From an uncultured virus (IMG/VR IMGVR_UViG_3300046321_000078) (lineage: Duplodnaviria; Heunggongvirae; Uroviricota; Caudoviricetes): 64,000 nt of DNA. The notes below the pieces were generated by a model. The model saw nothing but the letters and a program-made list of their open reading frames with translations. It was not told the origin of the DNA and made no database searches. Each line of letters begins with the position of its first letter. Positions within the stretch are counted from its first letter, which is position 1. The stretch lies in the IMG/VR virus record IMGVR_UViG_3300046321_000078; one strand, 5' to 3'. Both the position numbers and the translations under genes were made by a program. Positions 1,312 to 63,915 of the stretch are shown here, in pieces.

Positions 1312-3714
1312 CTAGTTAAAGTTTTTTTGTCCAGTATAATTTGAAGTTACTCCAGCATCTTTTTGTTTTTTAAATAAGTCTTTAGGATTTTTAATTACTA
1401 AAGCATTAATCAAAACCTGATCAACATGATCTACTAAAATGATTTTTAATTTCTTTAAAATCTCCTTTGGAATGTCAGCTAAATCTTCTTCGTTTTCTTT
1501 TGGGCAGATGATAGTTTTAATTCCACCACGTTGAGCAGCTAAAATCTTCTCCTTTAATCCACCAATTGGTAATACTTTACCACGTAATGAAATTTCACCA
1601 GTCATTGATAATGTCCGCCTAACTGGAATATTTAATAATGCAGATACGATTGATGTCGTAAGAGCAATACCAGCAGAAGGTCCATCTTTAGGTGTTGATC
1701 CATCTGGAAAGTGGATGTGAATATCTACGTCACTAAATTTTTCTTTTGCTAATCCAAACAATGGTCCCCGAGATCGGACGTAAGACATAGCCGCAGAGCA
1801 TGACTCTTTCATCACATCCCCCAATTGACCCGTTACCGTGAACTTACCGCTTCCAGGAACCGCGCTGACTTCAACAGCTAGCAGATCTCCACCGACTTCA
1901 GTCCATGCCATACCATTTGTCAGACCAATTTCATCTTGCTTTTCAATCTCACCGTGTTTATTTTTATGAGGACCAATTAACTCGATAATTTTTTTAGGAG
2001 TAATGGTGTATTTTGCTTTTTTAAACTTAGTAATAGAGTTAGACATTACAATATCTTTCGCTACTTTACGAAATACATTAGCGAACTGACGCTCTAAATT
2101 ACGAACTCCAGACTCTCTTGTGTAATATCGAACAACATCTAAAATAGCAGAGTCTTCGATTGTGATTTTAAAGTCTTTTAATCCATGATTCTCAATTTGC
2201 TTAGGGACTAAATACTTCTTAGCAATCTGAAATTTCTCTTGTTCAATATAACCTTCTAAATTAATAATTTCCATTCTATCCAACAAAGGACGTGGAACAT
2301 TACTAAGATCATTAGCTGTTGCTATAAACATAACATTAGATAAGTCATACTCAACTTCTAAGAAGTGATCAACAAACGTAGCATTTTGTTCCGGATCTAA
2401 TACTTCAAGCATAGCTGAGGCTGGATCTCCTCGTTGATCTGAGGACATCTTATCAATTTCGTCTAATAAAATAACAGGATTATTTGTATTTACTTTCTTT
2501 AATGCTTGTAAAATCTTACCAGGCATAGCACCTACGTATGTTTTACGATGACCGCGAATTTCAGCTTCATCACGCACTCCGCCTAAAGAGATTCTAGTGA
2601 AGGGTCTATTTAACGATGCGGCAATAGAACGCGCTAACGTCGATTTACCAACCCCAGGAGGACCGGCTAAACAGATGATGGAGCCCTTCATATTCTTTGA
2701 TAATGATAATACAGCCAAATACTCCAAGATACGATCTTTAACCTTATCCAAACCAAAGTGATCATCATCCAATATCTTCTTAGCATTCGGTACGTCATGA
2801 CGATCTTCAGAATATGACAACCACGGTAATGATAATACGTTATCAATGTAGTTTCTCACTACACCAGACTCTGCTGACATAGGAGACATTGACTTTAGTT
2901 TCTTGATTTCTTTGTTTACTCGATCTTTTACAGCTTGAGGCATGTTTTTTTCTTTACAAGCCTTAGTCAAGTCCTCAATTTCAGAAACTCCGTCATCTTT
3001 ATCACCAAGTTCTTTTTGAATAGCACTCATCTGTTCATTTAAGTAGTATTCTTTCTGAGACTTTTCCATTTGCTTCTTAACTCTGTTGCTAATCTTCTTC
3101 TCAACCTCAAGAATTTCCACTTCATTTGCGATTAGCTTGATTAATTTTTCTAATCTAACAGAAGTATCCATGATTTCTAACACTTCCTGCTTTTCTTCTA
3201 ACTTTAAAGTCAAGTTAGAAGCAATGACGTCGGCCAACTCACCAGCGGAGTCCGCAGTTGCCACTCTCATTAGGATTTCTGTTGGAAGTTTTGTGTTTAA
3301 TTTGACATAAGAATCTACAATACCTTTAGCTGATCTAATTAAGGCTGAAGATTCTACAATAGTTGAATTTTTCTCTGTGATCACTTCAAAATCTACAACA
3401 AAGTGTGTAGAGTTAGGTACGAATTTCTTAATTTTAATGCGACTTTTACCTTCCACCAATACTTTTACTGTTCCATCAGGTAATCGAACAAGTTGGACAA
3501 TAGAACATAAAGTTCCTACAGAATAAATGTCTTTTTCGTCTGGATTGTTGTTTTTAGCGTCTTTTTGTGCAGCCAGAACAATGTCAGTTTGTTTACTCAT
3601 GGCATATTCTAAAGCACTGATGCTTTTCTCTCTACCAACAAATAAAGATAGTGTTGTGTGTGGAAATATGATGAGATCTCGTAACGGAAGAAGTGGAAGT
3701 TTTGTATTTGACAT
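1312..3714 (-). CDS. lon: ATP-dependent Lon protease (LonA), full length
   Basis: LPLLPLRD N-domain, Walker A GPPGVGKS, Walker B ILLDEIDK, catalytic KDGPSAG (Ser) and GGLKEK (Lys). Start moved to ATG 3714 after the AGGAGA RBS. Confidence 0.97.
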   Translation of the reverse strand: MSNTKLPLLPLRDLIIFPHTTLSLFVGREKSISALEYAMSKQTDIVLAAQKDAKNNNPDEKDIYSVGTLCSIVQLVRLPDGTVKVLVEGKSRIKIKKFVPNSTHFVVDFEVITEKNSTIVESSALIRSAKGIVDSYVKLNTKLPTEILMRVATADSAGELADVIASNLTLKLEEKQEVLEIMDTSVRLEKLIKLIANEVEILEVEKKISNRVKKQMEKSQKEYYLNEQMSAIQKELGDKDDGVSEIEDLTKACKEKNMPQAVKDRVNKEIKKLKSMSPMSAESGVVRNYIDNVLSLPWLSYSEDRHDVPNAKKILDDDHFGLDKVKDRILEYLAVLSLSKNMKGSIICLAGPPGVGKSTLARSIAASLNRPFTRISLGGVRDEAEIRGHRKTYVGAMPGKILQALKKVNTNNPVILLDEIDKMSSDQRGDPASAMLEVLDPEQNATFVDHFLEVEYDLSNVMFIATANDLSNVPRPLLDRMEIINLEGYIEQEKFQIAKKYLVPKQIENHGLKDFKITIEDSAILDVVRYYTRESGVRNLERQFANVFRKVAKDIVMSNSITKFKKAKYTITPKKIIELIGPHKNKHGEIEKQDEIGLTNGMAWTEVGGDLLAVEVSAVPGSGKFTVTGQLGDVMKESCSAAMSYVRSRGPLFGLAKEKFSDVDIHIHFPDGSTPKDGPSAGIALTTSIVSALLNIPVRRTLSMTGEISLRGKVLPIGGLKEKILAAQRGGIKTIICPKENEEDLADIPKEILKKLKIILVDHVDQVLINALVIKNPKDLFKKQKDAGVTSNYTGQKNFN

Positions 3715-3735
3715 TGTATATCTCCTATTTAATTT

Positions 3736-3764
3736 AATGTACCACATTATTTTTGGAATGTAAA
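3736..3764 (-). promoter_or_regulatory. sigma70-type promoter TTTACA-17-TACATT for lon
   Basis: 17-bp spacer, TG upstream of -10. Confidence 0.6.
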
Positions 3765-13544: not shown

Positions 13545-15058
13545 TGTCTTCTCCTATTGCTCCTAGAAAGTTAACTAAAACTGAGGCTATTGCTAAGCTT
13601 TGGGATATGGGTAATCTTACTTATAAGATGCACTCAGCTCAAGTTGACATGTATAAACGTATTCAAGAAGGTGATGATATCATTCGAGTCATTGCATGTT
13701 CTCGCGGTTGGGGTAAATCGTTTGCTCTACTCACTATCGCGTTTGAAACATGTCTTAATAAACCAAATGCCATTGTTAAGTACGCGGCTCCTACTGCTAA
13801 GGATTTAAAATCTATTGTCATGGATAACTATAAAAAGGTTATGGAAGATTGTCCTAAGAAGTATGCTGATAAAATTAAATGGAAAGTACAAGAGAATAAA
13901 ATTGTATTTGAACATAACGGTAGTGAAATACATTTAGCCGGTGTTGAAAAAGGTAACTTCGAGAAACTTCGGGGAGCTACAGCAGACTTGTGTATTATCG
14001 ACGAGGCTGGCTTCTGTGATAAGTTAGACTATATTGTGAAGTCTGTAATGTTCCCAATGATTGCTCGTGGTAAAGGTGATATTAGAGCTAAACGTATAGT
14101 AATGGCATCAACTCCTTCTAAGAGTAATGATCATGATTTTATTAGTTACATGCGTGACTATGAGTTTAAGGAAAAATTAGTTAAGTATACGATTCATGAA
14201 AATCCTTTAATGGAATTCCAAGCTAAAAATTCAGGATTTGCTACTACTCAAGCTTTTATTGATACAGTTATTCTTGCTCCTTACCCTGACGGGGTAAATT
14301 CCACAGCTTATATGCGTGAGTTTTTGTGCATTATAATTAACGAAGACGACGATGCTGTTATTCCTGAATTTAGTAAAAAAGAAGTTCAAGATTTAGTCAT
14401 CAGAGAGTGGGCAGAACCTCTTTATTATGACATTTATATTGCAATGGATATAGGTTTTACTGATTTAACCGTTGCTTTATTTGGATACTATGACTTTCAA
14501 AATGCTAAGCTTGTCATTAAAGATGAATTAGTATTATCGGGTACTAAAATGCTCACAGACAACTTAGCACTTGAAATAAAAATGAAAGAGTCAACTAACT
14601 TCTACAATAAATATACGGGAGAAGGTTTAAAGCCTTACCTTCGCATTGCTGATAATAATAATCCAATTCTTCTACAAGATTTATCTATTAAGCATGATCT
14701 ACATTTTAATGCTACCGATAAAGACAATAAAGAGGCAGCATTAAATAATATGCGTATGATGTTGAAGTCGGGTAAGATAGTCATTGATCCTAAGTGTAAG
14801 GTGTTAATATCACACTTAAAAGGTGCAGTTTGGAATGCAGCAAGAACTAGTTACGCTCGGAGTCCAGATAAAGGACATTACGATGCATGCGATGCACTTG
14901 TGTACCTATGTCGTAATATTAACTTCCAAAGAAATCCATTCCCAAACAATAGTTATAGTCCCTCTAATCACTATATTAACCCAACAACTAATAACGCCGA
15001 GACTCCAGCAGAGAAGGCTATTATGGGTATGAAGTTAGGTATTAAACGTCGTAGGTAA
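13544..15058 (+). CDS. terL: terminase large subunit
   Basis: SRGWGKS Walker A, IIDEAG Walker B, ASTP, AMDIGFTD nuclease motif, GHYDACDAL. Confidence 0.93.
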   Translation: MSSPIAPRKLTKTEAIAKLWDMGNLTYKMHSAQVDMYKRIQEGDDIIRVIACSRGWGKSFALLTIAFETCLNKPNAIVKYAAPTAKDLKSIVMDNYKKVMEDCPKKYADKIKWKVQENKIVFEHNGSEIHLAGVEKGNFEKLRGATADLCIIDEAGFCDKLDYIVKSVMFPMIARGKGDIRAKRIVMASTPSKSNDHDFISYMRDYEFKEKLVKYTIHENPLMEFQAKNSGFATTQAFIDTVILAPYPDGVNSTAYMREFLCIIINEDDDAVIPEFSKKEVQDLVIREWAEPLYYDIYIAMDIGFTDLTVALFGYYDFQNAKLVIKDELVLSGTKMLTDNLALEIKMKESTNFYNKYTGEGLKPYLRIADNNNPILLQDLSIKHDLHFNATDKDNKEAALNNMRMMLKSGKIVIDPKCKVLISHLKGAVWNAARTSYARSPDKGHYDACDALVYLCRNINFQRNPFPNNSYSPSNHYINPTTNNAETPAEKAIMGMKLGIKRRR

Positions 15059-28188: not shown

Positions 28189-28593
28189 ATGATAACAATG
28201 TCTGAATTACTAAAAAATACTAAGTTTGAAGATATACCAAAAGAGCATCAGGAGAACCTTTTAAAGCTCCTAGACATGCTCAATTTACTGAGAAGAGCCT
28301 ACGGTAAGCCCTTAATTGTCTCGAGTGGGTATCGCTCAATGACGGACCACTTGAGAATTTACAAGGAGAAGGGTATTACTGATAAGTCTAAAATACCTAT
28401 GAAATCGGCACATTTAAGTGGTATGTCATGTGACTTCTCTGATCCTGATGGGTTATTAAAGGACTGGGTTAATAAGAACCTCCAGATTATGGTAGATATA
28501 GGCTTTTATATGGAAGATTTCTCAGCAACGAAAACGTGGCTTCATGTCCAATTTAGAAAACCAGCTTCTGGTAAGCGTTTTTTTATGCCTTAA
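28189..28593 (+). CDS. peptidase M15A-family endolysin
   Basis: SSGYRS, SAHLSG.SCD, WLHV zinc ligands. Confidence 0.85.
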   Translation: MITMSELLKNTKFEDIPKEHQENLLKLLDMLNLLRRAYGKPLIVSSGYRSMTDHLRIYKEKGITDKSKIPMKSAHLSGMSCDFSDPDGLLKDWVNKNLQIMVDIGFYMEDFSATKTWLHVQFRKPASGKRFFMP

Positions 28594-28653
28594 AAAAGGA
28601 CAACAGTAGTCGAAGTCCTGTTGTCCTATGGGACTTGTTATGGCTAATAACTT
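28592..28653 (-). ncRNA. candidate ~62-nt sRNA A
   Basis: Promoter TTGACA(28688-83)-17-TATTGT; hairpin GTTAT/ATAAC; terminator GGACAACAG/CTGTTGTCC plus T6; no ORF. Confidence 0.55.
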
Positions 28654-28698
28654 ATACACACAATAGCACAATATTCGATTATTGTCAAGTCCTTTGTT

Positions 28699-28709
28699 TA
28701 ACATATATT
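28699..28709 (+). promoter_or_regulatory. TAACATATATT motif
   Basis: Upstream of the tail fibre operon. Confidence 0.7.
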
Positions 28710-28731
28710 AATATAGGGAGATTATGACTGC

Positions 28732-42254: not shown

Positions 42255-42661
42255 TGAAAATATCAGCTTTTAAACGAATTGTAAAAGAAGATTATGATGA
42301 GAAAGATCAGCCATTAGTCGAAAAATTAGCGTCTGTGTTCAATTTGTTCCAAGAACAGGTTTACTACGCTTTCAATAATAATATAACCATAGATGAGAAT
42401 CTGAGTGCAGTTACTGCGACTTTCAAAGCTAAGGTTGATACCACTGGAAAACCTATAGGTAATAACCAGGTCAAGTATACTTTAAAGACTAAAACTAAAG
42501 GTGCTATGGTGATTAACGTTAGGAGTTACGACGGTAGTATGTTGTCAGGTGCTCCTTTTATTACATACACATTGAATGGTGAAATTATAACAATTACACA
42601 AATTACAGGGTTATTAGCTAATAAAGATTACGATGTTACGGTTGTCTTTTTTGCTTCTTAA
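42254..42661 (+). CDS. virion structural/hypothetical protein
   Basis: GTG start coupled to the upstream stop. Confidence 0.6.
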   Translation: MKISAFKRIVKEDYDEKDQPLVEKLASVFNLFQEQVYYAFNNNITIDENLSAVTATFKAKVDTTGKPIGNNQVKYTLKTKTKGAMVINVRSYDGSMLSGAPFITYTLNGEIITITQITGLLANKDYDVTVVFFAS

Positions 42662-42671
42662 TACCCCTTAT

Positions 42672-42682
42672 TAACATATACT
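42672..42682 (+). promoter_or_regulatory. TAACATATACT motif
   Basis: Upstream of the ejection-protein block. Confidence 0.7.
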
Positions 42683-42701
42683 AGTATAGGGAGAATATAC
42701 T

Positions 42702-48718: not shown

Positions 48719-48979
48719 ATGTCAGATATTAAACGTGTTATAGAAAAATTGGATATGATGGATTCTAGAATGGATAATATTGACATTACTCTTGCTAAAC
48801 AGCATGTATCTTTAGATGAGCATATTAGACGTACCGAACTTTTAGAAATAGCTAGAGAGAAATCTGACGAGAAGATTTCTAACTTAGAGTCCCACAAGGA
48901 CAAAGTAATCGGTGGTATTGCTATTCTTGGTATTCTTGGTAGTTTTATTTTAGGTCTTAAACAATTAGGATTATTCTAG
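48719..48979 (+). CDS. coiled-coil plus C-terminal TM protein (holin-like)
   Basis: Heptad N-terminus, single C-terminal TM; last late gene. Confidence 0.5.
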   Translation: MSDIKRVIEKLDMMDSRMDNIDITLAKQHVSLDEHIRRTELLEIAREKSDEKISNLESHKDKVIGGIAILGILGSFILGLKQLGLF

Positions 48980-49516
48980 TTTATAAAAATCAATGTAAAA
49001 TGCTACCATTTCAAAAGGTAATACAGCTCCGCTGGACATCAGTCGTATAAATTCTCGTTTACTCATCAACTCTGGAACTTCTTTTTCTTTTAAAATAGCT
49101 TCTTCAAAATTCATATCCATATAACGCTCTTGCCACATGTCCATAGCAACTTCAGGATCTATGTCTACTTTACGTCCTGATGCCCTACCTTGAGCATATA
49201 CGTCGCGCTGCCTTGCATTATTCTCGGTGTATATCTCACGCTTACTAGTCTTTGACTTGTGGTGTACTTTACCGCCGTGATTAAATCTAGCACCTAGTTT
49301 CTCTTCCATAAATGAAGATAAGTATTCTTTATCTTTAGGGGATAAGTCGTCAATATAGTCTATGTCGTGGAATTCTTGTTTTACTTTTGAGAAGAGTCGG
49401 GGATTGAGCCCTGGATACTTAGCATTCTCTCTAGCTGTTCTTTTTCCCTTTGGTTTATCTTTCTGGCCTTGTGTGACTTCTTTGCTCCGAGTATTCTTGA
49501 TAGTTTTTGTTGCCAT
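48971..49516 (-). CDS. basic hypothetical protein
   Basis: Likely start MATKT after an AAGGA RBS. Confidence 0.55.
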   Translation of the reverse strand: MATKTIKNTRSKEVTQGQKDKPKGKRTARENAKYPGLNPRLFSKVKQEFHDIDYIDDLSPKDKEYLSSFMEEKLGARFNHGGKVHHKSKTSKREIYTENNARQRDVYAQGRASGRKVDIDPEVAMDMWQERYMDMNFEEAILKEKEVPELMSKREFIRLMSSGAVLPFEMVAFYIDFYKLE

Positions 49517-49848
49517 TCTGGTGCATCCTTCTTGAATTGCAGATATGCTATTTTGAAAGCAACAGAACATTTAAGTCCCCATGCTAACTTTGTAGTTCCT
49601 GGATAACGTTGTCTTAATCTGTATAATTTAGCAGCTCCGCTACCTTCGGTAAAAGAACTTCGATGTGGTACTTTTTTGTATTTAGTAAAATACCACTTTG
49701 AATAGAATACAAACAAATCATTATATAAAATACGTTTAGATAGATCGTCTTCTGAATAGCCGTTTTGTTTTAAGAATGTATCAAAAGGACAATCTGTTAA
49801 ATTGCTAGCCGAAGAAGCTATGTCTAATAAATCTTTAAAGTCATCCAT
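49381..49848 (-). CDS. hypothetical protein (possibly winged-helix-like N-terminus)
   Basis: Coupled to the upstream stop; overlaps the next gene. Confidence 0.5.
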   Translation of the reverse strand: MDDFKDLLDIASSASNLTDCPFDTFLKQNGYSEDDLSKRILYNDLFVFYSKWYFTKYKKVPHRSSFTEGSGAAKLYRLRQRYPGTTKLAWGLKCSVAFKIAYLQFKKDAPEWQQKLSRILGAKKSHKARKINQREKEQLERMLSIQGSIPDSSQK

Positions 49849-50234
49849 TAGAAGCTGACTCCGATAGTTGCTCCTATTTGTTTATCAGTATTTATAGAAG
49901 CACCTAAATATAAATTACCGATAATTCTACGTTCAACTTGCAAGCCATATACCAAAGTAGGATCAGTTATAGTACGAGATCCTTTAATAGATACGTGCCA
50001 ATTTGTTGCAGCGATAACTTTAGTATTAGTCTTGCTTTCTTTGGAACGATCTACGATAGTTGTTACTTCTTCTTTCGTCCCATCTGGTTTAGTGATGATA
50101 CGAGTTACGGTCTGTATATCTTTTACTATCTTCTCAACTTCAACAGTCTTTTCTTTTACTTTAGGAAATAGTTGAGATCCGGCAGCCAATCCTAGTAATA
50201 TACAAATACATCCTGTAATAATATAATTTTTCAT
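49848..50234 (-). CDS. envelope protein: N-terminal TM, C-terminal amphipathic beta-strands (spanin-like candidate)
   Basis: AGGAGA RBS; ends QIGATIGVSF. Confidence 0.55.
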   Translation of the reverse strand: MKNYIITGCICILLGLAAGSQLFPKVKEKTVEVEKIVKDIQTVTRIITKPDGTKEEVTTIVDRSKESKTNTKVIAATNWHVSIKGSRTITDPTLVYGLQVERRIIGNLYLGASINTDKQIGATIGVSF

Positions 50235-50348
50235 TTAATCTCCTGTAGTGTAACAATAATTTCTTTTAGTAATTGGTTTTGTTTGTATTGTTGATATAAA
50301 TGCAAACCGCCAGCCAAGAAGTATATAATAGAAAAAATAACATAAATG

Positions 50349-50618
50349 TCACGCATCCTTACCTTCATCTTTTTGATTTACGGAAATGCTACGATCATCC
50401 ATATCAATCGAGAAGCTATCTAGTTTTCTGAGGCGGTACATTAATAGACAACCAAAGAATAACATTAAAGCTCCTACAGATCCAGCTAAGACATCTTTTA
50501 CTGTCAGGTAAATAATCACACCTAAAGACAAAAGAAATGAAACATAGGCAAATAGAAGCGTTACAGATGGTTTATTAGTTACCTTGTCTGTAGCAAATGG
50601 AAAGTTAAAATCTTTCAT
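50349..50618 (-). CDS. two-TM membrane protein (holin-like candidate)
   Basis: Two TM helices, charged tail; ATG 50618 after AAAGGA. Confidence 0.55.
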   Translation of the reverse strand: MKDFNFPFATDKVTNKPSVTLLFAYVSFLLSLGVIIYLTVKDVLAGSVGALMLFFGCLLMYRLRKLDSFSIDMDDRSISVNQKDEGKDA

Positions 50619-50628
50619 AGGTCCTTTC

Positions 50629-50691
50629 AAAAAAGAAAGGTAGCTAGGTGAGGTATTCTAGCTACCAGTAATATTAGGAGAAATACTACAT
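50629..50691 (-). ncRNA. candidate ~63-nt sRNA B or attenuated leader with an anti-SD loop
   Basis: Promoter TTGACT(50726-21)-17-TATATC; hairpin GTAGTATT-TCTCCT-AATATTAC; terminator GGTAGCTAG/CTAGCTACC plus TTTCTTTTTT. Confidence 0.55.
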
Positions 50692-50733
50692 GCAATAGAT
50701 ATACCACACTTAATCATAAAAGTCAACTAGTTA

Positions 50734-51195
50734 TTATATATCATCTTCTGGCAATTTTATACCACACTCAACTAAGAAATCATCTAGAGATTGTCCGGTA
50801 TGTTTATTCGTCTTTGGGTCTTTTTTCTTCTTCTTTGTTCTTACTTCTTTACGGGCAGCATTAGCTTCTGCTCTTGTTTGCTTACGTACTTTGTTCTCAC
50901 CGATAGATTTGATATCATGACACTCGTTGCAAATTGCTTGAAATCCGGACTCGTCGCATAGTAGTCTATTTGCAAAATCATCTAATGTTGTCCATCCAGT
51001 TTTGGGGTCCACACAGGGCTCTATGTGATCCATTTTTATGGTATGCCTGTCCACTATAGCTTTACATAGTTCACATTGGTATTGACCTCTGGCGACTCTA
51101 GCACGTTTTAATACTGAGTTTCGATGCGGCCATCTGTAACTCGCTCTACGAAGAGTCTGAATTAAAAAAGCTTTTCTATCTATCGGTTTCTTCAC
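50734..51195 (-). CDS. HNH endonuclease
   Basis: CELC, DHIEP, QAICNECHDIKS. Confidence 0.85.
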   Translation of the reverse strand: MKKPIDRKAFLIQTLRRASYRWPHRNSVLKRARVARGQYQCELCKAIVDRHTIKMDHIEPCVDPKTGWTTLDDFANRLLCDESGFQAICNECHDIKSIGENKVRKQTRAEANAARKEVRTKKKKKDPKTNKHTGQSLDDFLVECGIKLPEDDI

Positions 51196-51400
51196 TAAAA
51201 GGTTTTCCTTTTGTTATAGTTTTACCTACTGTTACAGTTACTTCTGTTATACCACACTCTTCGTGACATTTACTGTTGCGTTTCAAGCTAGAAATACTTG
51301 GATATACTCGTATGTCAGTTTCTCCAAGTTCCCAATTAATTGCCGTTGTACAAACATAGCATGTGATTTTTTTAGTTTCCATTTTGTTCACCGTTGTCAT
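51176..51400 (-). CDS. hypothetical protein
   Basis: Packed array. Confidence 0.5.
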   Translation of the reverse strand: MTTVNKMETKKITCYVCTTAINWELGETDIRVYPSISSLKRNSKCHEECGITEVTVTVGKTITKGKPFSEETDR

Positions 51401-51566
51401 CTATATTGAAATCTTTGTTCTTAATTTTACCAGCTCTGTACAGTTGTCGTATTGTTTCTAGCAATTGAAATCTAGGTATCTCCATCGGTATATTGAAGCC
51501 TTTCTTTTTCAAGGCTGATACCAATTCTAAGTTGCTCATCTTTGCTAATTTTTCCATACTTATCAT
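51372..51566 (-). CDS. small protein resembling Rho-N/HeH nucleic-acid-binding helices
   Basis: LAKMSNLELVSALKKKGF.IP....R.QLLETI. Confidence 0.4.
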   Translation of the reverse strand: MISMEKLAKMSNLELVSALKKKGFNIPMEIPRFQLLETIRQLYRAGKIKNKDFNIDDNGEQNGN

Positions 51567-51771
51567 TAGACTTACTCCAGTCTGTATGTAGCGTACTTTT
51601 ATTTACATTTAACTCTATTTGTCCGTATGTAAAAAACAAACCTGTTACTTTTACGTAATCAAATCCGCCATCAATAGAACAATGATTGCAGGAACACGAG
51701 TGGAAGTCATGCGTAGTCCTTGAATATATAATATCATCGCACTGTCCGCATTGAATAGCTTTAATTTTCAT
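51472..51771 (-). CDS. Cys/His zinc-binding phage protein
   Basis: CGQCDDIIYSRTTHDFHSCSC...IDGG.DY. Confidence 0.65.
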   Translation of the reverse strand: MKIKAIQCGQCDDIIYSRTTHDFHSCSCNHCSIDGGFDYVKVTGLFFTYGQIELNVNKSTLHTDWSKSNDKYGKISKDEQLRIGISLEKERLQYTDGDT

Positions 51772-52076
51772 TTAATTCTTTTCCTGTGCCCGCAGCTGTT
51801 ACAAGTTCCAATAACTTTATCCATAATTTCAAACTCTTCCATTACTCCAGAGAAGCATTTCTCACAACTCTTCATTTTACTCTTCTTCTCGACTACAACT
51901 TCCTGTGCTTGCTCTTCGGCAATAATTTCTTCGTAGTCGCTAATTACTTCGTGGTATATATGCTTTGACTTCTCGAACTGGTGAACTTGTCTTTTTAACT
52001 TTCGTATTGTCTTAGTTAATTCTCTGTTTTCGCCTCTAAGATGTTCTAACTCACTCTTGTCCTTTTGTCTAGCCAA
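51768..52076 (-). CDS. coiled-coil plus zinc-ribbon protein
   Basis: CEKC...CNSCGH; AGGAGA RBS with TTG start. Confidence 0.6.
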   Translation of the reverse strand: MARQKDKSELEHLRGENRELTKTIRKLKRQVHQFEKSKHIYHEVISDYEEIIAEEQAQEVVVEKKSKMKSCEKCFSGVMEEFEIMDKVIGTCNSCGHRKRIK

Positions 52077-53680: not shown

Positions 53681-54952
53681 TTACTCATAGTTTAATGCTC
53701 CATCATAAGTTGGAATAATTTTATCTAGTGTTGTATCTTTATCCGCAAGTAATACATTTACCAACCGGCTATCGCCATAGATATGATTCTTAGTACTTTC
53801 GAAGATAGGCTGGGCAGCTTGGTTAGTATTAATACCTAAACTGTATGCGTAGTTATCTAATCCTGACATGCTAGGAGATACTAGCACCCTTACTCCGTCA
53901 AACGTCGTAAACTCAGCATGACAGTGTGTGTGGCCGAATATAACCAGGTTAGCCTTTGGTCTGCCCATTGCCACTTCTCCAGTATTCCAGCGATTAATAC
54001 TATCACTTAATCCTTTAACATTAATACTAGTTCCAGTGCTACCTAATTGCTTAGAAAATATAGTGTGACCGTGAAGCACTACAGCTCGCCCTGCCGGTAG
54101 ATTGATGTCCAGGTGTAATCCTTTAGACATATTGAATTTGATGTTCTTATTGCCTCTAAACGCTAATGAGAGGCCGTAGTATACTGGAGTAAGGAAGCTA
54201 TCTTTCATAGCATGTGACGTAATGCGGCCACCTTCTCGACGCGTGACATTTTCATCATGATTTCCCACATTACAATGTACTGTTACGTTTTTATAGAATT
54301 GAGCAACGTGTGAGATGAAGTGTGTAAAAATGTGCATAGCTCCAGTTTGTTGTACACCTAATAACTCTTGTGTACGATCAGATAATCCGTGGATTAAGCC
54401 TTGTAAGTGATCTCCATTCAGGATTACGTGTAGATTTTTTACATCATTACGTCTACGAATCTTATACTCTGCTGTTTGTTTTGCCATGAATGCAGTTCTT
54501 CGACAAGCAATCTTCCAGTTGTATTCGTTTAGCCCGCCAATTTCAGAAGGGTCTACATTCAAACCGAAGTGTGTGTCTGTCAACATTACTACAACATCTC
54601 GGTCAAGCTTTGTTTTATTATTAAAATTAAGTACAGCTTTAGGTACTTTAATAGGAGCTATTACATTTTTCAATGTAGCAATGATGCGGTCTTCAAATAA
54701 CTCTTTAGTTCCTACTGAATTTTCAAGCTTACGAATATATCCTGAAGTTTCTTTTAAAGAAGCAATGTCTTTTAAAGATTTCTCAGTTTCTGGAAAATAT
54801 GTTTTTTTAATAGCAGTATAGCCGCCATACTTTAATAATTGACGCTCCGAGATACCCATATCTTTTAAGTCTCTATTTTTAAGGTCTTGCGGATTAGTTC
54901 CTGTGTCTGCACATACTTCTTTTATCTGTTTAACTATTTCTTTTAACGTCAT
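53681..54952 (-). CDS. metallophosphoesterase (calcineurin-like, DNA pol II small subunit/Mre11-like)
   Basis: DTH, GD, GNHD, HGH, GHTH; start moved to MTLKE after GGAGA. Confidence 0.82.
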   Translation of the reverse strand: MTLKEIVKQIKEVCADTGTNPQDLKNRDLKDMGISERQLLKYGGYTAIKKTYFPETEKSLKDIASLKETSGYIRKLENSVGTKELFEDRIIATLKNVIAPIKVPKAVLNFNNKTKLDRDVVVMLTDTHFGLNVDPSEIGGLNEYNWKIACRRTAFMAKQTAEYKIRRRNDVKNLHVILNGDHLQGLIHGLSDRTQELLGVQQTGAMHIFTHFISHVAQFYKNVTVHCNVGNHDENVTRREGGRITSHAMKDSFLTPVYYGLSLAFRGNKNIKFNMSKGLHLDINLPAGRAVVLHGHTIFSKQLGSTGTSINVKGLSDSINRWNTGEVAMGRPKANLVIFGHTHCHAEFTTFDGVRVLVSPSMSGLDNYAYSLGINTNQAAQPIFESTKNHIYGDSRLVNVLLADKDTTLDKIIPTYDGALNYE

Positions 54953-59596: not shown

Positions 59597-59625
59597 AATA
59601 TATCAGGTTTTCTGTGTATTGTCAA
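59597..59625 (-). promoter_or_regulatory. sigma70 promoter TTGACA-17-TATATT
   Basis: Near-consensus; heads the polymerase unit. Confidence 0.75.
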
Positions 59626-59630
59626 CAAAT

Positions 59631-59654
59631 AAAAAAGGGACAATTACGTTGCCC
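59631..59654 (-). terminator. intrinsic terminator
   Basis: GGGCAA-CGTAA-TTGTCCC-TTTTTT. Confidence 0.7.
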
Positions 59655-63886: not shown

Positions 63887-63915
63887 ACTATATCCTAGAT
63901 TTCAGTTATTGTCAA
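63887..63915 (-). promoter_or_regulatory. sigma70 promoter TTGACA-17-TATAGT (leaderless start at 63880)
   Basis: Near-consensus; ATG 7 bp from the -10 element. Confidence 0.75.

Follow-up and report, generated by a model that had tools for sequence, protein, structure and literature searches.

The 64,000-nt stretch of DNA from the uncultured caudoviricete phage IMGVR_UViG_3300046321_000078 (in the following, the window) carries on its minus strand, between positions 50726 and 50629, a promoter followed by two hairpins and a U-tract, directly upstream of a gene for a small protein with two predicted transmembrane helices (two-TM protein). We propose that this element would give rise to a promoter-proximal terminated RNA, about 62 nt long (76 nt in G001, a related phage), with a CU-rich design complementary to Shine-Dalgarno (SD) sequences, which would also be the leader of the two-TM operon. 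We assign this reading a probability of roughly 0.4. The reality of a structured RNA element at this site is highly probable, and the predicted short RNA would probably accumulate as a discrete species; its action in trans on SD regions is put forward tentatively. The roles as short RNA and as operon leader are compatible with each other.

The features of the element and its direct neighbourhood are:

50734 to 51195, minus strand: gene predicted to encode an HNH-like protein of 153 amino acids (aa), from the list of open reading frames (ORFs) and matches to PHROG HNH endonuclease families (best E = 6.4e-11)
50698 to 50726, minus strand: promoter with the -35 box TTGACT (50726-50721), a 17-nt spacer ending in TGg and the -10 box TATATC (50703-50698)
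50690 to 50697, minus strand: conserved discriminator and start region UAUUGCAU, identical in G001
50668 to 50689, minus strand: hairpin 1 (from folding), an 8-bp stem GUAGUAUU/AAUAUUAC with the loop UCUCCU (50681-50676)
50666 to 50639, minus strand: hairpin of an intrinsic terminator, GGUAGCUAG/AAUACCUCAC/CUAGCUACC (from folding and a terminator scan)
50638 to 50629, minus strand: U-tract UUUCUUUUUU, with which the whole terminator extends over 50629 to 50666
50349 to 50628, minus strand: SD sequence AAGGA (50626-50622) and gene of the two-TM protein (50349-50618, 89 aa, ATG at 50618)

Promoter, fold and termination

The original prediction had claimed a sigma70 promoter, an 8-bp hairpin with a UCUCCU loop and a 9-bp terminator with ACCUC in its loop, and all three were recovered on the minus strand (TTGACT-17-TGgTATATC at 50726-50698, hairpin 1 at 50689-50668 and the terminator including its U-tract at 50666-50629). 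The promoter belongs to the extended -10 type, the TG being located at 50706-50705. It was not listed in a consensus promoter scan of the window because TATATC lacks the final T. A scan for TTGAC(A/T) revealed that the site fits a promoter type, TTGAC(A/T)-17-TGn-TATAnT, which precedes minus-strand genes in the window and likewise in G001; further promoters of this type (TTGACA, 17 nt, often TGn, TATAnT) were detected in the window at 63915, 62286, 59625, 56626, 53286, 28167 and 27522. The host-type promoters with an extended -10 on the minus strand (62286, 59625, 53286, 28167, 27522 and 23672) show the arrangement TTGACA, 14 nt, TGn, TATAnT, and at most of the host-type promoters the leaders are very short, with the ATG 10-40 nt past the -10 box.

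Transcription is presumed to start at about A50691, a position derived solely from the distance to the -10 box. The 17 nt covering the -10 box and the start region (TGGTATATCTATTGCAT) are identical in G001. A variant contig from metagenome run X9 has no change in 50692-50733 and eight changes in 50734-50842, within the coding part of the HNH-like gene; of the element it spans 50692-50726 alone. Fragmentary DNA contigs from three further runs (X2, X5 and X7), which cover the element partially, show no change within 50629-50726, and the four runs together offer too little variation for a test of covariation.

A 65-nt RNA that begins at the presumed start and extends to the U-tract forms precisely the two hairpins, with a minimum free energy (MFE) of -19.5 kcal/mol. 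None of 200 shuffled sequences folded as well (z = -5.2), and the MFE structure makes up 88% of the ensemble in the window and 59% in G001, so that there appears to be no competing fold. The two hairpins are separated by one U. In the terminator a 9-bp stem (50666-50658 with 50647-50639) encloses the 10-nt loop AAUACCUCAC (50657-50648), which exceeds the size that termination needs, as does the 8-nt loop in G001. The 22-nt hairpin 1 occurs once in the window (0.01 occurrences expected). A further hairpin, CCUUUC/GAAAGG, which would sequester the SD sequence of the two-TM gene, forms in the window and was rejected as it is not conserved in G001.

Strict terminator-like hairpins were searched by script on both strands, defined by a perfect stem of at least seven pairs with at least three G-C pairs and a T-rich tail. 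Five were found in the 64 kb of the window, the terminator of the element being among the two strongest. The motif CCUC occurs in the loop of one of these five and of one out of ten such hairpins in G001, and these two are the orthologous ones.

Between the U-tract and the ATG at 50618 lies the segment GAAAGGAC (also given as GAAAGGACCU), a gap of merely 10 nt, and the two-TM gene has no promoter of its own. The gene is therefore presumed to be transcribed solely via read-through of the terminator. Structurally, there is thus no way around the alternative that accompanied the original prediction, a leader for the two-TM gene.

The counterpart in a related phage

Homologues of the two-TM protein were used to search for relatives of the element. 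A protein alignment (A1) was prepared from the window protein and 17 of its 18 homologues, leaving out the 60-aa fragment P0010, and scans with it yielded four loci in metagenome contigs (33-45% identity), one viral locus (L005) and one locus in genome contigs. Scans of IMG/VR with the two-TM protein and with the exonuclease returned no relatives, and a tblastn search with the neighbouring 128-aa protein found nothing. Among the six loci, of which L002 and L003 do not differ in the region compared, L005 alone has the hairpins. It is contained in G001, a viral contig of 81,942 bp (98% complete by tool estimate) whose neighbourhood is syntenic with the window throughout, at a nucleotide identity of 64-84% and mostly 70-78% (blastn, about 32 kb).

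In the distant loci L002/L003, L004 and L006 (33-39% protein identity) the gene upstream is likewise HNH-like and a TTGACA promoter follows directly past its stop codon; hairpins and terminator are absent before the two-TM gene at these loci, and the promoter drives the gene directly. At L001 the gene upstream is another one. Since these distant relatives lack the hairpins, the two-hairpin module appears to be an insertion into a formerly plain 5' untranslated region (5'UTR).

In G001 the promoter consists of TTGACA and a 17-nt spacer, followed by TGGTATATCTATTGCAT. Hairpin 1 is formed by AUACGGUAUUU/UCUCCU/AAGUAUCGUGU, and a single-stranded linker, CCCUCCACA, with an exposed CCCUCCA leads to the terminator GGGCAGCUCAGU/UUACCUCC/ACUGGGUUGCCC, which has a 12-bp stem and the loop UUACCUCC. 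The U-tract GAUUUUUAU, UAAGGAU and the ATG follow. The G001 element also folds better than all of 200 shuffled sequences (z = -6.5). Loop 1 together with its two closing U-A pairs is identical in both phages, and UACCUC is common to the terminator loops AAUACCUCAC and UUACCUCC, while several of the surrounding stem positions differ. As the related phage keeps the two-hairpin RNA, it is probably a real regulatory RNA.

For the analysis of covariation, a covariance model was built from the window sequence alone with its predicted structure and used to align the G001 element (alignment A8); the MAFFT alignments A2, A3 and A4, which are not structure-aware, were excluded from the pair counts. All 34 cells of the 17 pairs show standard pairing. 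Five pairs are changed on both sides and one on one side; when, as a control, the 3' partner was shifted by 1-3 columns, there were no double changes and 25-47% of the positions were paired. Three of the double changes concern the outer pairs of hairpin 1 (G-C to A-U, U-A to C-G and A-U to G-C) and the other two fall in the terminator stem. In hairpin 1 of G001, moreover, a U and a G are inserted on facing arms and pair as U.G. Across these two sequences loop 1 is thus identical and the stems have changed yet remain paired, and we regard the evidence from covariation as good but not conclusive.

A G-U pair in the stem had been taken to support the minus orientation. One such pair is present in the window and five more were counted in G001, and all six wobble pairs become A.C mismatches on the opposite strand. 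The MFE of the sense strand is lower than that of the antisense strand in both phages (-19.5 vs -17.8 kcal/mol in the window, -30.4 vs -18.0 kcal/mol in G001). Taken together, the wobble pairs and the folding energies identify the strand of the downstream gene as the functional one.

Further copies were sought in three ways. A scan for the exact 17-mer TGGTATATCTATTGCAT gave nine loci, eight of them unrelated and mostly coding and one being the G001 record. The two-loop pattern matched 70 loci, and in G001 alone were both motifs situated in the loops of folded hairpins. A search with the single-sequence covariance model in the window, the whole of G001 and the loci L001, L002, L004 and L006 (166,547 bases) detected no convincing further copy; the G001 orthologue itself scored merely 12.6 bits.

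Possible function and alternative explanations

UCUCCU and UACCUC in both phages and CCCUCCA in the G001 linker are complementary to SD sequences of the AGGAG/GAGG type, and these exposed CU-rich motifs resemble the 3' tail of the 16S rRNA. In the proposed scenario a host sigma70-type RNA polymerase would start at about 50691 from the extended -10 promoter, and the nascent RNA would form the 5'-terminal UCUCCU hairpin and then the terminator with UACCUC in its unusually large loop. Most transcripts would end in the U-tract, resulting in an RNA of about 62 nt, or about 76 nt with the single-stranded CCCUCCA in G001, and a minority would read through and express the two-TM operon. In the manner of the CU-rich anti-SD RNAs of the LhrC, RoxS/RsaE and RNAIII type, the pyrimidine motifs exposed on the short RNA would pair with AGGAG-type ribosome-binding sites (RBSs) of phage and/or host mRNAs and thereby hinder binding of the 30S subunit.

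A short RNA is favoured by the strength of the terminator and the single dominant fold, together with the conserved promoter and the hairpin at the 5' end. By sequence and conservation, the element has its own promoter and a Rho-independent terminator which would bound an RNA within the range of about 50-150 nt, and on the basis of two sequences at least two exposed SD-complementary pyrimidine motifs are conserved between relatives. The distribution of these motifs over loop, linker and terminator loop resembles that in the LhrC RNAs, and a terminated leader RNA acting in trans on SD sequences is therefore favoured.

LhrC1-5 of Listeria monocytogenes and other small RNAs (sRNAs) of low-GC bacteria with a UCCC motif (RsaE/RoxS, RNAIII, SprD and FsrA) are the closest likeness that we found. 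Any of three redundant CU-rich sites of LhrC was shown experimentally to bind the SD region of lapB and to block its translation, and RNAIII, RsaE, SprD and FsrA are described to use a UCCC motif in the same manner (PMC4132741). Both LhrC and the predicted RNA of the element are small two-hairpin RNAs with an own promoter and a Rho-independent terminator, and both present CU-rich motifs in the first loop, the linker (for the element in G001 only) and the terminator loop. However, the element lacks similarity to LhrC at the level of sequence or covariance model, its motifs are UCUCCU and ACCUC(C) instead of CUCCC, and it is shorter (about 62-76 nt), phage-encoded and the leader of a protein-coding operon rather than a standalone RNA.

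Hairpin loops presenting anti-SD-like pyrimidine runs are also characteristic of the Cuckoo/CcsR-type and 6C-type sRNAs. The loop design of the element is similar, but it reached the gathering score of no Rfam model of any family (best score 15.6 bits vs a threshold of 70, and no match in G001). A search of 50600-50740 with Rfam 15 returned five matches of 12-16 bits vs thresholds of 50-74, the best being the one with 15.6 bits; the larger region 49500-52000 gave one irrelevant match (E = 3.7) and the G001 element no match at E up to 10. By these scores the element is outside the described Rfam families, including LhrC, RsaE/RoxS, 6C and cuckoo where the library has those models. In the literature covered, mostly titles and the beginnings of abstracts, we found no phage-encoded anti-SD sRNA in print; what the search aimed at such an RNA brought up was a Caulobacter RNA sponge. 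A multi-omics study that sought UCCC-type sRNAs in a lytic Listeria phage found none, the abundant phage transcripts lacking UCCC motifs (PMC12282133). Virulent or uncultured phages have yielded few known regulatory RNAs, and the literature consulted deals chiefly with sRNAs of E. coli prophages and the c4 RNA (PMC12197685).

Possible targets were assessed by duplex predictions between the loop segments and the translation-initiation regions of roughly called genes, 90 for the window and 152 for G001. Many RBSs were listed, as is expected for any anti-SD sequence, and AGGAGA is present in 13 of the 90 regions of the window and in 13 of the 152 of G001, all of which are potential partners. The best match in the window is gene 31850, a tail protein by PHROG, at -14.3 kcal/mol. 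The 11-nt complementarity to its RBS reported in the original prediction is real; its significance did not hold up, as at least 11 nt were also matched by 37% of the control sequences in the window and 23% in G001 that kept the UCUCCU core with permuted A/U-rich flanks (7% with random flanks). In the G001 orthologue the RBS is AAAGGGAGACAUAAGUG and the pairing drops to -8.9 kcal/mol. As a specific target the RBS of gene 31850 was rejected, and by these comparisons a specific phage target is not supported. A mRNA target with conserved pairing, as is expected for a LhrC-like trans-acting sRNA, was not found among the phage RBSs. Of the trans-acting sRNA first proposed, there thus remain the structured minus-strand RNA, the credible promoter, the conserved loops and the covarying stems, while the named target has to be given up.

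Several points weigh against the proposed function. The start, end and abundance of the RNA are all deduced from the sequence, and the element, which only two independent sequences carry, occupies the position of a leader or attenuator with a downstream gene that depends on read-through. The complementarity is generic to any SD sequence, and the best predicted phage target is neither conserved nor better than the controls. Moreover, an SD blocker without specificity would hit the phage as well, since AGGAGA is found at many of its early genes. With regard to conservation, a background identity of 70-78% makes a conserved 6-nt loop modest evidence alone, alignment A8 was fitted to the structure, and the shuffle control is weak with two sequences, since 23 of 500 shuffles reach the observed values.

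An extension of the proposed reading appears improbable at present: the early host-type promoter would yield large amounts of an RNA that imitates the anti-SD tail of the ribosome two to three times per molecule. This decoy would mask AGGAG-type RBSs broadly and thereby serve the shut-off or timing of translation. The operon with its AAGGA site would escape this block and be expressed from the read-through transcripts alone. The RBS of the two-TM gene (AAGGA without GGAG in both phages) indeed pairs poorly with the loops (-4.4 in the window and -4.5 kcal/mol in G001) and is among the weakest predicted partners, the medians of loop-RBS pairing being -6.4 and -5.3 kcal/mol. If an anti-SD function applied, a leader-embedded RNA with multiple anti-SD motifs would mean that phages and their hosts share one design of translational masking, and the element, with 62 nt and two loops, would be a compact device for a global or timed tuning of phage translation.

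A purely cis-acting leader or attenuator, whose terminator throttles the transcription of the two-TM operon, is the foremost alternative and a serious one, although we consider it less likely than the proposed reading. It may be a constitutive leaky terminator limiting a dose-sensitive membrane protein, or a phage or host factor may bind the conserved pyrimidine loops and cause read-through in a manner similar to N/boxB or Q/tR'. The terminator is located between the promoter and a gene without any other promoter, 10 nt before its ATG; the same promoter drives the gene directly in L002/L003, L004 and L006, where the hairpins would correspond to a 5'UTR insertion; and the promoter-then-terminator order is kept in G001. 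A second promoter-terminator unit occurs in both phages, in G001 with a gene directly after it. The cis-acting explanation predicts the short RNA likewise, as a by-product like the 6S RNA of lambda. However, no alternative antiterminator fold was seen, the MFE structure accounting for 88% and 59% of the ensemble; there are no mutually exclusive folds, and a leader peptide is not conserved, the AUG-UAG of the window being absent in G001. A scan of 17 proteins in Pfam and PHROGs and of 56 more in PHROGs only matched no Q-, N- or other antiterminator family, which is weak evidence since such proteins are small and diverse and the window spans about 64 of roughly 82 kb. Finally, the anti-SD character of both loops and of the G001 linker is left unexplained.

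The lambda systems offer the corresponding precedent. In lambda, the promoter pR' is followed by the 6S RNA and tR', where Q acts, and the boxB loops of the nut sites, where N acts, are purine-rich. The element shares with these systems the promoter, the short terminated transcript and the read-through genes, and the small hairpin with a conserved loop just past the promoter. In contrast to lambda, the unit downstream consists of five small genes and is not a late operon, and no Q- or N-like protein was present among those scanned. Even if the element were an attenuator only, it would still be a clean conserved promoter-then-terminator unit in a phage group without a cultured member.

The anti-SD appearance may, furthermore, be incidental pyrimidine richness of an ordinary terminator that closes the early operon upstream, made up of the HNH-like gene and the genes preceding it, with hairpin 1 acting as a 5' stabiliser of the read-through mRNA. 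Transcripts from upstream promoters, e.g. 53286, must meet this terminator too, intrinsic terminators are rare in the genome, so that this one probably marks a real operon boundary, 5'-terminal hairpins are known RNA stabilisers, and a match of 6 nt is not rare at 70-78% background identity. Nevertheless, a promoter located upstream of the terminator is unusual for such an arrangement (compare the terminator at 59654, which precedes the promoter at 59625) and yet conserved, and changes in the outer stem of hairpin 1 and at several positions of the terminator stem left the loops intact. Taking furthermore into account the loops of 8-10 nt, which exceed the needs of a terminator, and the third exposed motif CCCUCCA in G001, this explanation seems unlikely.

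A c4-like mechanism is regarded as very unlikely; in this case the leader RNA, set free from the operon transcript by cleavage or termination, would pair with RBSs further down the same operon. The c4 RNA of the phages P1 and P7 (c4-icd-ant) is an RNA at the head of an operon that shares the operon with its targets and blocks their translation near the ribosome-binding site via its loops (PMC8198154, PMC12197685). The element also lies at the head of an operon upstream of same-strand protein genes, and the RBS of the second operon gene (49848-50234), ACAGGAGAUUAAAUG, contains an exact AGGAGA. However, the complementarity of c4 is extended and specific to its own operon, whereas that of the element is weak and not conserved (-4.4 and -4.5 kcal/mol at the two-TM RBS; -8.8 at the second gene vs -6.1 at the G001 site GAUGAGGAAAAC) and is not seen beyond 6 nt. 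Moreover, c4 is released by processing, while the 3' end of the RNA considered here would be set by the terminator.

Hardly any probability is given to a DNA palindrome acting as operator or to a plus-strand RNA with the SD-like loops AGGAGA and GAGGUA (similar to a CsrA or ribosome sponge). In their favour, the inverted repeat overlaps the promoter start region, and both phages conserve AGGAGA with a subsequent ATG-CAA-TAG. Against them, the six wobble pairs turn into A.C mismatches in DNA and in an RNA of the opposite strand, the G001 antisense fold is 12 kcal/mol weaker, and the plus strand has neither promoter nor terminator, the T-run 3' of the hairpin being on the minus strand only. The plus strand of 50676-50697 contains AGGAGA and, 8-9 nt further, the start-Gln-stop mini-ORF ATG-CAA-TAG, which is thus preceded by a perfect SD sequence, with the same arrangement in G001; this mini-ORF probably results just from the conservation of the loop and the start region.

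Genome context and further regulatory units

DNA of the source phage was found in freshwater metagenome runs, and the 24 runs listed for it include no RNA run. The window represents about 64 of roughly 82 kb and has a G+C content of 34.7%, and AGGAG-type SD sequences precede most of its genes. Its terminase is at most 27% identical to those of known phages and a blastn search of 50300-51200 against 50,697 phage records gave no match; on this basis the window phage is without a close relative in the phage collection. A search for tRNA genes gave none. The two main gene groups are arranged as follows:

13131 to 48979, plus strand: structural genes
minus strand: replication and early-type genes, encoding a family-B polymerase, a primase-helicase, Erf, exonucleases and Lon (Pfam and PHROG matches)

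The HNH-like gene upstream of the element ends with TAATAA, 8 nt before the -35 box, and a homologue is found at the same place in G001 and in the distant L002/L003, L004 and L006. The two-TM protein has two predicted membrane helices and 18 homologues (46-99% identity), whose alignment sets its start at MKDF, corresponding to the ATG at 50618. The closer ones among them are P0001-P0009, P0011 and P0012, at 62-99% identity. It matched no Pfam or PHROG family, and its neighbours in the Atlas are viral hypothetical proteins. Its gene heads a short operon of five small genes that ends at 48971. The second gene of the operon (49848-50234, minus strand) encodes a 128-aa protein with an N-terminal membrane anchor and the C-terminus ...GATIGVSF, and its aromatic last residue is reminiscent of outer-membrane beta-barrel proteins. 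This protein and the two-TM protein could form an envelope- or lysis-related module, for which the family matches give no support.

The last genes of the two strands converge and overlap by 9 nt at 48971-48979. The one on the minus strand ends at 48971, and the one on the plus strand (48719-48979) encodes a protein of 86 aa with a C-terminal membrane helix. As there is no terminator between them, both operons would transcribe into each other.

The second promoter-then-terminator unit is located at:

28596 to 28688, minus strand, in the window
54831 to 54930, plus strand, in G001 (14831 to 14930 of record L020)

In the window this unit comprises TTGACA-17-TATTGT, about 35 nt, the hairpin AGGACAACAG/11-nt loop/CUGUUGUCCU and UUUUUU. 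No gene on the same strand follows, and read-through would be antisense to the endolysin-like gene at 28198-28593 (phrog_894). The orthologous unit of G001 has a different stem with 'UUAGCCA' in common, and a gene (GGAGGAAUAUG) lies directly after it.

A motif of about 21 nt, TTAACATATA(T/C)TA(A/G/T)TATAGGG(G)AG, immediately precedes plus-strand structural genes. Its copies are:

28687 to 28722 and 42660 to 42695, plus strand, in the window
about 67428, 53642 and 40769, minus strand, in G001

The motif may be a phage-specific late promoter, and its end, TATAGGGAGA, recalls promoters of the T7 type; no phage RNA polymerase or sigma factor was identified among the proteins. The early genes of the window also include a full-length Lon protease gene (1312-3747, minus strand; Lon_C with E = 3e-85, phrog_15585 with 1046 bits).

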